The translations under genes were made by a program, and so were the position numbers. This document shows positions 47,801 through 51,077 of a stretch of DNA of 64,000 nucleotides, one piece after another. A model generated the notes under the pieces. It was given only the letters and a program-made list of their open reading frames with translations. It did no database searches and had not been told where the DNA came from. This DNA comes from an uncultured Isosphaeraceae bacterium (GTDB lineage: Bacteria; Planctomycetota; Planctomycetia; Isosphaerales; Isosphaeraceae): positions 24,781 to 88,780 of the forward strand of contig CAWJGW010000064.1 of assembly GCA_963842405.1 (NCBI GenBank), given 5' to 3'. Positions within the stretch are counted from its first letter, which is position 1, and every line of letters begins with the position of its first letter.

Positions 47801-49188
47801 GTTTCTTCCACTGGGATCTCTCCTTCCCCGAGGTCTTCTTCGGGACCTCGGAAGCGGACTTTAACCGGCTTCGGCACAGCCAACGACTAGCGATTACTGG
47901 GAAAGGGTTCGACGCTGTCGTCGGCAATCCGCCTTATGTTCGCATGGAGCTGATCAAGCCGATCAAGCCGTTCCTCAAGCGGCATTACCAGTGCCACGCT
48001 GAGCGAGCCGATCTCTTTATCTACTTCTACGAGCGAGCTGTGCGCCTTCTACGACCCGAGGGTCGGACGGCATTCATCGCCTCCAGTACCTGGACCAAGA
48101 CCAAGGCTGGCGAGCACCTACGCGAGTTCCTCAAAGTAGAGACCACCCTTGAAAGCTTCCTCGACTTCGGGGACCTTCCTGTCTTTGAGGACGCCACAAC
48201 TTACCCCTGCATTCTGGTCGTACGCCGCCAAATGCCCCAACCCAGTCAGGTCGTCGCCAGTGCCGTGGTCAACGACCTTGAGGAGATCGACCTGGTTCGC
48301 TACCTCAAGACTCACACCGTCCCCGTTCCTCAGTCCCAGCTCGAGCTTTCGGGCTGGCACTTTGAGGACCGCCTCGCCATCCGGCTCCGCGACAAGATCC
48401 GCGCCGCGGGTATATCTCTTAAGGAGTATTGCGGCGCGCCGCTCTACGGGATCAAGACAGGCCTGAACGAGGCGTTCGTCATCGACACCCCGACCAGAGA
48501 CCGACTCGTCGCCGAGGATCCTAAGAGCGCTGAGGTTCTCAAGCCCTTCCTCGAAGGCAAGGATCTCAAGACTTGGCATGTCGAGTGGCGCGGACTGTGG
48601 CTTATTTATACCCATCATGGCATTGACATCGACCGCTATCCTGCCATACGCGCTCATCTAGCTACTTATCGATCGCAACTTGAGCGGAGAGCGACGAGTG
48701 ACAACCACGAGTGGTACGAGTTGCAGCAACCTCAATTTGCGTACACTTCTTACTATCAAACACCGAAAATATTCTATCCCCATTTTTCCCGTTGGCCGAA
48801 ATTCTCGTTTGACCCGAAGGGATTCTACGGCAACGACAAGACGTACTGCATCCCTGTCCGGGACAGCTACCTCTTGGGAGTCTTGAATAGTCCTATAATT
48901 TGGTACATTATGAAGGGGATTTGCTCCTTAAAAAAGGGGGGCTATTATGAGATGAGGGTCCAGTACGTTGAGACGGTGCCAATTGCCAAGCCGAACGATG
49001 CTGATCGTCGAGCGATCGCATCGCTGGCAGAGCGTCTATCGGAGGAAAGCATCATGGATCGCCTTGCGATCGAGTCCGAACTATTCGACCGTGTTGCACA
49101 TGTGTACGGACTCACTCACGAGGAGAAGGAGATGCTCGATCTCGAGGTGGGTGCCTCCCTGACCTCTTCGGCGATCGATGAGGACTAG
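44829..49188 (+). CDS. Large RM-type protein: HsdR_N-like N-terminal module + gamma-class N6-adenine DNA methyltransferase + Eco57I/TaqI-type target-recognition domain (type IIG / PglX / DrmMI-like); one frameshift near 47190
   Basis: ORF 44829..47210 (GTG start) has PDYLL...IIVTNGKEWRLYS, LLYRLLFLLYAESRDLLP, SGSYYTPDPVVEYIV and VLDPAMGSGHFLVEAVDF. ORF 47047..49188 has [33 protein letters not shown] (about 47925..47936), GIKTGLNEAFVID and LKPFLEGKDLKTW. Confidence 0.85.
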
Positions 49189-50229
49189 ACTCGTGTATCT
49201 CAATCGCCTTCGCCTCTACAACGTAAAACCATTGCGGCGTGAGATCCCGGGTGAAGGCGGGAATCCCAGAGCCCGCCCGTCACCGTCTGCTCCTGCAGGG
49301 AGGCAACGGGAGCGGCAAAACGACCGTACTCGAGACCGTGCGCGTCCTTTGGGAGTTCCTAGGCGAATGGATCGACCGGGGACAAGGGAAGCCGCCAACG
49401 GCGAACCAGTCGCGTCATTTTCTTTTCAGATCTGACTTCGCTGCGTTAGAGCTTCGAGGGTTTGCCGGGGATGACCGATCTCTGTGGGTGGGCATTGCCG
49501 GGGCGAACGATTGGTCGGACTTAAAGCGTTCAGAGCCAAACGCGGTCTTTGCTGGGCTCGTACGCTACGGGAAGAAACCTGAGCAAGCCCGCATCGAGCT
49601 CCCGGCAGGGCGTGACTGGAAGACCTTGCGAGACAGCAGTCTTGTTGGTCGGGAACCATTACCGAATATTGTCCACTTTCCTCCCGATAATCGCACCGTG
49701 GTCGGGCCTCCCAAGGGCGGTGCCCGATTAATCGACACGAAGGCGCGTAAACTGGTCGGCGTTCTACAATCCGAAACTGGACCTCGACTCACTCCTCCTC
49801 ACCGTCAAGGCATTGCGGCCCGAGAACTACGATCAGAGTCTTCGCTTGGTTAACCTCGCTATCGGACACCGAAACAAGCGGATCTCTGACTTCGGCGAAG
49901 ATGGACGGCTCTTGGTGGAGGGAGTGACTGAGTATGGGGTTGCCTACCGCCATCCCGTCGAGGAGCTCTCCTCTGGCGAACGGCAGATGTTACTCTTGAT
50001 CGTTTACACGGTCGGGTTCCTCCGGAATGGCGGAATCGTCCTTATTGATGAACCAGATCTACACATACATATATCTATGATACCTCAACTATTGGAAACG
50101 CTAGAACTGGTGGTCCGGGAACGAGGCGGACAATTAATTGTCGCCTCACATTCGCAACTGGTTTGGGACTGGTTTTCCCGAGAGGAAGAGCAAATCGAGT
50201 TGGGGCCTTGGCGGGAGGGCGCGACATGA
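49178..50229 (+). CDS. ABC/AAA_21-type ATPase (AriA/AbiLi/RloA-like), two apparent frameshifts
   Basis: - N-terminus VYLNRLRLYNVKPL in ORF 49178..49435. The start is ATG 49178 or GTG 49194, overlapping or abutting the stop of the MTase gene.
- Walker A LLLQGGNGSGKTTVLE in ORF 49239..49853.
- LSSGERQ and Walker B IVLIDEPDLHIH in ORF 49813..50229. Confidence 0.75.
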
Positions 50230-51077
50230 GTACTCCGCCCAAGCCTGTAATGGATGTTCGGACGATACGCAGCACGAGTAATCGGGCGGTTCTCGTCCTG
50301 GAGGGTAAGGAGGACTCCGAAGTCTACTCGCGATGGCTGAAGAAGCTCATGGGACCTGGTTCCGTTGTCTCCGGTCGGCTCAATCTCGTCGCGGTTGGTG
50401 GAAAGATAAATGTTTTGACTGCGTTGGAGTGGTATCGGGACCACGAAGGCAACCCGGACAACATCTTCGGCATTGTAGATCGTGATGAATGGGATGATGC
50501 TACTATCGCCACAAAGAAAGGGGACCTTTCACAGCTACGAGTCAATACTATGAGACATGGTATCGAGAGTTATTTCTGCGACCCTTCGGAGATCGAACCG
50601 GCGCTTCTAGCTGAGGATACCTCCACCTACGGCCCTCTAATCGCCGCATTCAACACGCAGGCGGCGACGGCTCTCGAGGCTCGCGTCGATCACTGGTGCC
50701 TGTTCACAGTGACTGAAAGGGTCAAGCAACGCATGATCGAGGTGGAATACCCGGGTATCTTTCACGATCTATTCGAGCTACCCGACGATACTGAGATTCT
50801 TAGCCGTCTCCGAACTTGGTCCAGCATCTTGGACTCTGACCGTATCTTCGATGAGTTCACGCGGTTACGGAGTGATGCACGATCTCGCACCTCCTCGGAT
50901 CGATTTCGAGGATGTGTCTGGGCGAAGCCCTTTTTCGAGGGCGTCGTATGCAGTGGAGCAGCCGGATTGCAACAGATGAAGGCCAAGAATACTACGACGT
51001 GGATGATCGATCTCGCTGAGCACTCACCGACAGTCCCCGCCGATATCGAGGCGATCCTCCGAGAGTTGATCCTTTGA
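50226..51077 (+). CDS. DUF4435 / TOPRIM-like protein (AriB/AbiLii/RloB-like)
   Basis: The ATG overlaps the upstream stop (ATGA at 50226..50229). AVLVLEGKEDSEVYSRW...VAVGGKINV...NIFGIVDRDEWDD gives the conserved Glu and DxD of a TOPRIM fold in the DUF4435 arrangement. The reading frame is intact at 283 aa. Confidence 0.7.
   Translation: MSTPPKPVMDVRTIRSTSNRAVLVLEGKEDSEVYSRWLKKLMGPGSVVSGRLNLVAVGGKINVLTALEWYRDHEGNPDNIFGIVDRDEWDDATIATKKGDLSQLRVNTMRHGIESYFCDPSEIEPALLAEDTSTYGPLIAAFNTQAATALEARVDHWCLFTVTERVKQRMIEVEYPGIFHDLFELPDDTEILSRLRTWSSILDSDRIFDEFTRLRSDARSRTSSDRFRGCVWAKPFFEGVVCSGAAGLQQMKAKNTTTWMIDLAEHSPTVPADIEAILRELIL

Follow-up and report, generated by a model that had tools for sequence, protein, structure and literature searches.

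A putative PARIS-type ATPase-nuclease cassette in the variable slot of a planctomycete methyltransferase-helicase operon

INTRODUCTION

In the system induced by phage anti-restriction (PARIS), the mechanism of which has been described (PMC11464382), the target of the nuclease is tRNA. PARIS-like modules have been proposed as guard or back-up layers in bacteriophage exclusion (BREX) and related loci, and nuclease-linked OLD-ABC ATPase modules occur in at least 1242 taxa (PMC12839542). In Salmonella Typhimurium, a gene pair within the BREX locus is called PARIS in the literature (PMC11341690). This pair is an indel relative to the BREX locus of Escherichia coli, and its genes, ariA and ariB, are dispensable for BREX methylation and for the BREX defense that was assayed, with neither gene adding to modification (PMC11341690, PMC9009780). 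Among other methylation-based systems, Mad3-4 of the methylation-associated defense system (MADS) has been classed with the AAA15/21 ATPase plus TOPRIM systems (PMC11464382), and MANTIS ends in a PLD and SF2 helicase effector (10.64898/2026.09.23.753747). Here, we analyzed a stretch of 64,000 nucleotides from an uncultured Isosphaeraceae bacterium (GenBank assembly GCA_963842405.1, contig CAWJGW010000064.1, positions 24,781 to 88,780 of the forward strand; referred to as the window), in which an ATPase gene (B) and a predicted nuclease gene (C) lie between a methyltransferase gene and a PLD+SNF2 helicase gene.

It is fairly probable, in our assessment, that B-C is a translationally coupled PARIS-type cassette from a divergent, mainly planctomycete branch, which occupies a variable slot and encodes an ATPase-caged nuclease. 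The PARIS-type reading is based on homology, conserved catalytic residues, the strict adjacency of B and C, translational coupling, and modular occurrence.

RESULTS

Sequence and predicted fold of B and C

The features of the gene pair are as follows; conservation refers to 31 homologues of B.

49178-50229, plus strand: gene B, a short OLD/AriA-type ABC ATPase (AAA_21) of ~345 amino acids (aa) once its three frames are joined
49299-49325, plus strand: Walker A motif of B, GGNGSGKTT, with the G and K columns invariant or nearly so
49966-49986, plus strand: ABC signature of B, LSSGERQ, with LSSGE invariant
50041-50070, plus strand: Walker B/D-loop of B, LIDEPDLHIH, with D, P, and H invariant
50140-50154, plus strand: H-loop of B, VASHS
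50226-50229, plus strand: ATGA overlap of the B stop and the C start
50226-51077, plus strand: gene C, intact, 283 aa, an AriB-like predicted nuclease on the TOPRIM/DUF4435 fringe
50298-50315, plus strand: LEGKED of C (E26/D30)
50475-50498, plus strand: VDRDEWDD of C (D85-R86-D87)
50562-50585, plus strand: IESYFCDP of C (E114)

A preliminary description of this DNA had quoted the Walker A, signature, and Walker B motifs of B, LEGKED and VDRDEWDD of C, and the coupling of the two genes through ATGA. All of these motifs were present, at or near where it had placed them, and the overlap lies at 50226-50229; the same 4-nt overlap was found in loci L001, L004, and L013 and on the P0019 contig. The motifs exceed what chance would give, as judged from the alignments, because the corresponding columns were invariant or nearly so in the 31 homologues of B and in 22 homologues of C. 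In the latter, E26, D30, D85-R86-D87, W89, and E114 were invariant. The true start of B is likely the GTG at 49193 rather than the ATG at 49178, since the consensus N terminus of the family reads MYVNRLRL.

Sequence matches and a structural model place B in the OLD/PtuA/AriA clade of ABC ATPases, as a compact form. B scored 69 bits against Pfam AAA_21 (cut-off, 27; E value, 1e-18) and 39.9 bits against AAA_15 (cut-off, 32.1), and its top PADLOC model was AriA (PDLC02980; 7e-22), which was matched over profile positions 6-304 of 304. Thus, the earlier assignment of B to the ABC-type ATPases was borne out. Weaker PADLOC matches to AbiLi (1e-12), mad3, PtuA, and GajA all ran through the C-terminal signature/Walker B region. 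B passed no NCBIfam model, all matches being far under the cut-offs. A word-indexed search returned 228 homologues of B, and the full-length ones listed were mostly 336 to 352 aa. When a profile of the 31 homologues was compared with PDB sequences, the best match was AriA (8ux9_B, 464 aa; 7e-10), and the region of B from the signature to Walker B (49966-50070) aligned with AriA residues 362-429. An AlphaFold model of a B homologue with 75% identity had a predicted local distance difference test score (pLDDT) of 91; its insert was of mixed strand and helix, with short helices only and without a long helical arm.

C is probably a divergent member of the DUF4435/AriB superfamily, because transitive profile evidence and the predicted fold both lead there. 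The AlphaFold model of C (pLDDT, 94; predicted template modeling score, 0.87) was matched in Foldseek at an E value of ≤1e-3 only by AriB (8v46_D and 8ux9_A; E, 1e-4; probability, 1.0; TM score, 0.47-0.49; full length), followed by the OLD nuclease 6p74. Twelve remoter relatives from Proteobacteria, Chloroflexota, and other groups aligned to the C family over the whole length (hhalign, 100%; E, 1e-42), and a Proteus mirabilis protein among them passed DUF4435 (33.6 bits) and matched the PADLOC AriB model at 8e-46. The window C itself matched this model (PDLC02983) at 2e-8 over its N-terminal half. The earlier placement of C in the TOPRIM/DUF4435 group therefore stood by these three lines of evidence, PADLOC, Foldseek, and hhalign, and failed by the Pfam DUF4435 score of C itself, which lies under the threshold. 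No NCBIfam model matched C, and weak Pfam matches among the 22 family members were to OLD-like_TOPRIM (12), DUF3226 (13), and DUF4435 (5). In the profile alignment with AriB (E, 0.11), E26 and D30 of C fell on E26 and D30 of AriB; the AriB E26A mutant is catalytically inactive (PMC12409363).

The C family is small, since a profile search of 1.84 billion representatives gave just 258 clusters at an E value of ≤1e-3. In a set of 5.8 billion proteins, 38 homologues were found, nearly all of 270 to 290 aa and mostly without a Pfam match; PF20469 (OLD-like TOPRIM) was found on 3 of them. The N-terminal peptide of C, MSTPPKPV (50226-50249), was strongly conserved in the planctomycete family, with S2 nearly invariant, which is unusual for an N terminus. 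Going by this conservation, the peptide could mark a docking segment for B.

Pairing of B and C and genomic contexts

B was located directly 5' of C in 27 of 27 loci, all of which were found via C, and the two were separate genes in every locus. The close loci, which are planctomycete, form an embedded and a standalone group. The embedded order, methyltransferase-B-C-PLD/SNF2, was intact in L013, a metagenome-assembled genome (MAG) of the Pirellulaceae, and on the P0019 contig (B, 336 aa; C, 282 aa; helicase, 1273 aa), and was partial or fragmented in L001, L002, L004, L006, and L011. Standalone pairs, whose flanks gave no methyltransferase or helicase match over as much as 10 kb, depending on the length of the contig, were present in L003, L007-L010, and L012. 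Two of the 27 loci had a pair adjoining BREX genes, one of them between pglX and pglZ. BREX contexts were seen among the distant relatives. The order was BrxC-PglX-pair-PglZ-BrxL in Erwinia aeris, and a Chloroflexota locus with the pair carried PglX upstream and BrxL downstream. On an Oceanisphaera plasmid, the annotated order was pglX, ATP-binding protein, DUF4435 protein, and pglZ. Embedded and standalone copies were interspersed in the tree, a rough neighbor-joining tree without bootstraps.

Two loci carried a second pair. On the Oceanisphaera plasmid (NZ_CP136857; L074), genes for an AAA ATPase and a hypothetical protein lay between brxC and pglX, and the two pairs spanned 338-2252 and 5886-7765. 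In L006, a Gemmatales MAG, two B-C pairs were 3.5 kb apart (264-2140 and 5715-7618) and the PLD/SNF2 helicase followed the second one; the two C copies belonged to different branches of the family.

Operon layout and host genes

The pair is flanked by two larger genes, as follows.

44829-49188, plus strand: gene 1, a large PglX/type IIG-like N6-adenine DNA methyltransferase
51101-54482, plus strand: gene 4, a PLD (HKD) and SNF2 helicase fusion of ~1130 to 1190 aa

In agreement with the preliminary description, the pair sits between the PglX-like methyltransferase and the PLD+SNF2 gene in a single co-directional cluster (44829-54482, plus strand), in which the four genes are tightly packed, neighbors either overlapping or being separated by small gaps. 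The operon is bordered by kinase genes that run on the opposite strand. The methyltransferase combines a helical spacer similar to MmeI with a catalytic domain of the Eco57I type and a specificity domain resembling TaqI_C (Pfam MmeI_hel, Eco57I, and TaqI_C), with the catalytic NPPY at 47926-47937. Its PADLOC matches were REase_MTase_IIG and DrmMI, and the orthologue in L013 gave partial matches to NCBIfam BREX PglX. For gene 4, Pfam returned PLDc_2, SNF2-rel_dom, and Helicase_C, and PADLOC returned "HKD+Snf2" and DrmD; the HKD motif is HAKAY at 51443-51457. A PDB sequence search with the helicase retrieved only the generic SNF2 core of RapA. Motif II of the helicase (52250-52261) reads IMVNESHN in the window versus LIDESHN in four intact homologues (L028, L006, L036, and L013).

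No core gene of BREX (BrxC, PglZ) or of the restriction-modification-linked defense island system (DISARM; DrmA, DrmB) was matched in the operon by PADLOC or NCBIfam. Matches of BREX or DISARM type were limited to the methyltransferase (PglX/DrmMI-like) and the PLD+SNF2 gene (DrmD-like), and all were far under the NCBIfam cut-offs. A promoter and terminator scan of 44000-55000 gave counts equal to the shuffle expectation, so that internal signals were unsupported. The sole sigma-70-like match near the operon start was TAGAGA-17-TAGAAT at 44738-44766, ~60 nt 5' of the methyltransferase start, which is weak and within the same shuffle expectation.

Variable cargo between methyltransferase and helicase

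With the N-terminal half of the helicase as anchor, a metagenome scan gave 45 close relatives with 49 to 82% identity, most of them above 60%. B-C was present in 0 of the 45, many of the contigs being too short upstream to judge. On contigs that extended far enough upstream to include the slot, three other cargos were found in it. One was an open reading frame (ORF) of ~180 aa with an HD/HD_assoc_2 protein of ~450 aa; Pfam confirmed it in L032 and L048, and ORFs of the same size lay at the same place in L029, L037, and L045. Another was a DACNV/DAC-like protein (L039), and the third was a PLD-like protein together with a Peptidase_M78 protein (L042 and L064). The C-terminal ~310 aa of the methyltransferase, which carry the specificity domain, were conserved solely in loci carrying B-C (L001, L011, and L013).

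The region 48247-51077 forms a block of low G+C content, with values of 0.548 for the methyltransferase specificity region, 0.568 for B, and 0.541 for C; around it, the values were 0.621 for the methyltransferase core, 0.648 for the helicase, and ~0.66 for the remaining window. The specificity domain and B-C may thus travel as one block. From the varying slot cargo, the covariation of the specificity region, the low G+C content, and the interspersed tree, B-C is judged to be a mobile cassette, one among several alternative cargos of the operon. Compared across these contigs, the operon of methyltransferase and PLD/SNF2 genes appears to be a scaffold whose cargo can be exchanged.

Frameshifts and state of the window copy

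B reads in three frames (49178 to ~49258, ~49257 to 49739, and 49747 to 50229), which are separated by two shifts.

49255-49262, plus strand: B frameshift 1 (+1), at GGGAATCCC within GGGAATCC
49739-49750, plus strand: B frameshift 2 (+1), at CGTAAACTGG

At frameshift 1, the tblastn high-scoring segments of the intact B from L003 switch frame, in agreement with the three-frame translation. Frameshift 2 was likewise located by tblastn and three-frame translation, and deleting one A at CGTAAACTGG gives back DTKARNWSAFY with the length found in homologues. Intact B homologues (336 to 352 aa) were collinear over both junctions in tblastn with intact B from two other loci. We weighed programmed frameshifting as an explanation for B and dismissed it, as the homologues are single ORFs.

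Other genes of the window were broken in the same manner. The methyltransferase is split into two frames at ~47186-47191 (tblastn), versus a single stop-to-stop ORF of 1666 codons in L013. The PLD+SNF2 gene has three frameshifts (~52885, ~53080, and 53845-53892), with intact ORFs in L013, L006, L028, and L036. Outside the operon, a Ser/Thr kinase-WD40 gene (29647-33376, minus strand) is spread over four or more frames that overlap, and two more kinase genes (42076-44320 and 54630-57472, both minus strand) are split through their catalytic domains. The density of shifts was roughly equal inside and outside the operon. A plot of G+C content at third codon positions showed many frame switches over the window and was too noisy for exact frameshift counts; thus, domain-level evidence was used. 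Since the frameshifts occur window-wide, they are probably assembly errors from an indel-prone assembly. The window copy of B retains 92 of the 94 columns that are conserved at ≥90% in the 31 homologues, with the two changes being V/I and I/L, and there are no in-frame stops in the frames used.

DISCUSSION

Proposed mechanism

By analogy with PARIS, we infer how complex formation, trigger, substrate, and outcome might be arranged for B-C. Oligomeric B would bind C and keep it inactive. B would sense a phage protein, possibly an inhibitor aimed at the methyltransferase/helicase arm, and coupling of this sensing to ATP binding or hydrolysis would release C. Free C could then cut nucleic acid through a two-metal TOPRIM site (E26, D85/D87, and E114), and this cleavage would stop growth and abort the infection. 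A guard or back-up role would fit because B-C is placed right after a PglX-type methyltransferase.

Several observations weigh against a PARIS-type cassette. The sequence match between B and AriA covers only ~70 C-terminal residues, and B is ~120 aa shorter than AriA. The closest structural fits of the model of the B homologue are to PtuA and to retron ATPases (E, 1e-10; TM score, 0.5-0.59), with a weaker fit to AriA (E, 1e-7; TM score, 0.35-0.49), and the long helical insertions of AriA, which serve the hexamer and provide the proposed trigger-binding surfaces, appear to be missing from it. With such insertions apparently missing and a PtuA-like fold, the stoichiometry and the sensing surface of B may therefore differ. 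On the side of C, the Pfam DUF4435 score is 13.2 bits (cut-off, 27), and the profile search of PDB sequences ranks AriB first at an E value of 0.11, which is not significant alone. For the Salmonella pair, the closest relative tested and the only one of the short form, no trigger was identified, and neither Ocr nor Gp5 gave rise to PARIS-dependent defense (PMC11341690). Finally, the window copy may be inactive, given that B has two frameshifts and that motif II of the helicase shows a D-to-N change; if real, the change in the DExH box would abolish ATP hydrolysis and disable the motor.

Alternative explanations

The main alternative, which we consider unlikely, is that B-C is an integral part of the methyltransferase/helicase system. 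The ABC ATPase would then load or regulate either the helicase-nuclease or the methyltransferase, with the TOPRIM protein as a second DNA-cutting subunit. MAD3-4 in MADS and MtsA/MtsB in MANTIS are precedents: deletion of mad3 or mad4 lowers defense (10.1101/2023.03.30.534895), and MANTIS methylation needs the ATPase and its small partner (10.64898/2026.09.23.753747). Such a role would account for the tight four-gene operon with its small gaps and overlaps, the order of which is kept even though C is only 36 to 60% identical (L013, L001, and the P0019 contig). It would also suit the position of embedded copies on the deepest planctomycete branches of the same rough tree, the occupation of the slot by some gene in every readable related operon, and the covariation of the C-terminal specificity region of the methyltransferase with the presence of B-C. 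However, related pairs occur without a methyltransferase or helicase match in the flanks examined, and close relatives of the helicase (73 to 82% identical) operate with cargo that is wholly different. Neither methylation by the Salmonella BREX system nor the BREX defense assayed there depends on ariA and ariB (PMC11341690, PMC9009780), and the generic ATPase core is the only part of B that the mad3 models match, with scores far under their cut-offs.

The same broken frames could be taken at face value, so that the window copy would be a decaying remnant in which the frameshifts and the helicase D-to-N change are genuine and nothing functional is encoded. Defense islands decay often, and the operon contains six frameshifts, of which B has two, the methyltransferase one, and the helicase three, besides the altered motif II. 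We consider decay improbable: frameshifts are equally frequent outside the operon, which fits assembly indels, fragmented genes also appear in other loci from similar metagenome assemblies, B has kept nearly all of its strongly conserved columns and open frames, and C is fully intact. Less probable still, to the point of being very doubtful, is a unit akin to Septu, Gabija, or class-2 OLD that degrades DNA with the adjacent helicase instead of a tRNA-cutting abortive-infection module. It would explain why B is matched best in structure by PtuA and the PtuA-type ATPases of retrons and why the TOPRIM domain of C resembles OLD nucleases, and Gabija does combine an ATPase-TOPRIM protein with a helicase (PMC12839542). 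However, the partner of PtuA is an HNH protein, the domains are fused in Gabija and OLD whereas B and C are separate genes, and C matches AriB alone over its full length, including the helical C-terminal half. In addition, the helicase is an SNF2+PLD fusion that is found without B-C.

Implications of the PARIS-type reading

The architecture of the pair, the short form of the ATPase, and the placement after a PglX-type methyltransferase all have published precedents. What is new, as far as sequence comparison tells, is a small and chiefly planctomycete clade, missed by the standard models of Pfam and NCBIfam, together with a host operon of methyltransferase and PLD/SNF2 without BREX or DISARM core genes. 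The current picture is unchanged, PARIS-like modules in BREX and related loci having been documented at large scale (PMC12839542). If active, B-C would extend the "caged nuclease" strategy of PARIS to Planctomycetota and to a system based on methylation but distinct from both BREX and DISARM. It is also an independent further case of an ATPase+TOPRIM cassette directly after a PglX-type methyltransferase, and this recurrence opens a way to test what is sensed by the short, Ocr-insensitive branch of PARIS. The slot between the methyltransferase and the helicase should be a practical hunting ground for more accessory defense genes.

A more tentative proposal, which we hold to be rather unlikely, is that methyltransferase-slot-PLD/SNF2 constitutes an undescribed modular defense system with interchangeable second-line modules and that the short PARIS-like pair is partnered functionally with PglX-type methyltransferases across phyla. 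Such second-line modules may include B-C, the HD phosphohydrolase, the DAC-like cyclase, and the PLD+M78 pair. A partnership across phyla is suggested because the pair follows the methyltransferase both in planctomycete operons and in enterobacterial BREX, apparently moving with the specificity domain; if true, it would be in keeping with a guard function in which the methyltransferase is monitored for inhibitors from phages. A literature search on the combination of DUF4435, methyltransferase, and SNF2 in defense found nothing.

COMPARISON WITH KNOWN SYSTEMS

In the OLD and Gabija systems (classes 1-2), the ATPase and TOPRIM domains are fused, whereas B and C are separated by a stop codon with the ATGA overlap. 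The PtuA ATPase of Septu and the PtuA-type ATPases of retrons are the best structural matches of B, but PtuA is partnered by PtuB, an HNH nuclease, rather than by a TOPRIM protein, and B scores 24 bits on NCBIfam PtuA against a cut-off of 500. Mad3/Mad4 of MADS and MtsA/MtsB of MANTIS (Gao_RL) resemble B-C in placing an ATPase and a small partner inside a methylation-based defense operon. However, these are required core parts, whereas B-C is also found alone. B scores 22.9 bits against a cut-off of 420 for Mad3 (NCBIfam NF047739), and the PADLOC mad3 match to B covers only the C-terminal 70 residues, the shared ATPase core. MtsA is a DUF499 AAA+ protein and MtsB a DUF3870 protein, neither related to B or C. 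MANTIS/Gao_RL was also rejected as the host system, given its DUF499 ATPase, its DUF3870 partner, and a methyltransferase of another group.

The kinship with PARIS, AbiL, and RloAB that had been suggested for the pair narrows to PARIS. B matches PADLOC AbiLi at 1e-12, which is weaker than AriA, and touches AbiLi and mad3 only via the generic ATPase core; C has no AbiLii match at an E value of ≤0.1, and no RloB match (Pfam PF13707) at the same threshold was found for C or for any of the 22 family members. Canonical PARIS (AriA/AriB of E. coli B185; PDB 8UX9 and 8V46) is, like B-C, a two-gene system with an ABC ATPase, its partner being a DUF4435/TOPRIM nuclease. AriB is the sole significant fold match of C, and among PDB sequences it is AriA that the B profile matches best. 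AriA, at 464 aa, forms a hexamer that senses Ocr (PMC11464382) and is built through helical insertions (IS1, IS2, and a coiled coil), whereas the B family of 336 to 352 aa appears to lack them. B is indeed shorter than classical AriA (~340 versus 464 aa), as had been suspected. The further suggestion of a distinct family is just half right, because the short form is that of Salmonella STM4494/STM4493, a pair already called PARIS (PMC11341690).

The closest annotated relatives of B and C are the ATPase STM4494 and the DUF4435 protein STM4493 (ariA/ariB) from the BREX locus of Salmonella Typhimurium (StySA/BREXSty). The proteins are collinear over the full length at 27% identity (pairwise E, 6e-31 and 3e-24) and similar in size (363/270 aa versus ~345/283 aa), and the short ATPase form of B is common to STM4494. 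The Salmonella host belongs to a different phylum and has brxA/B/C, pglZ, and brxL, whereas the host operon of B-C has only the methyltransferase and PLD+SNF2 genes and the window C is under the Pfam DUF4435 threshold. Gene order and gene overlap are the same in both pairs. The Salmonella pair sits between pglX and pglZ and thus, like B-C, immediately 3' of a PglX-type methyltransferase in a methylation-based defense operon.

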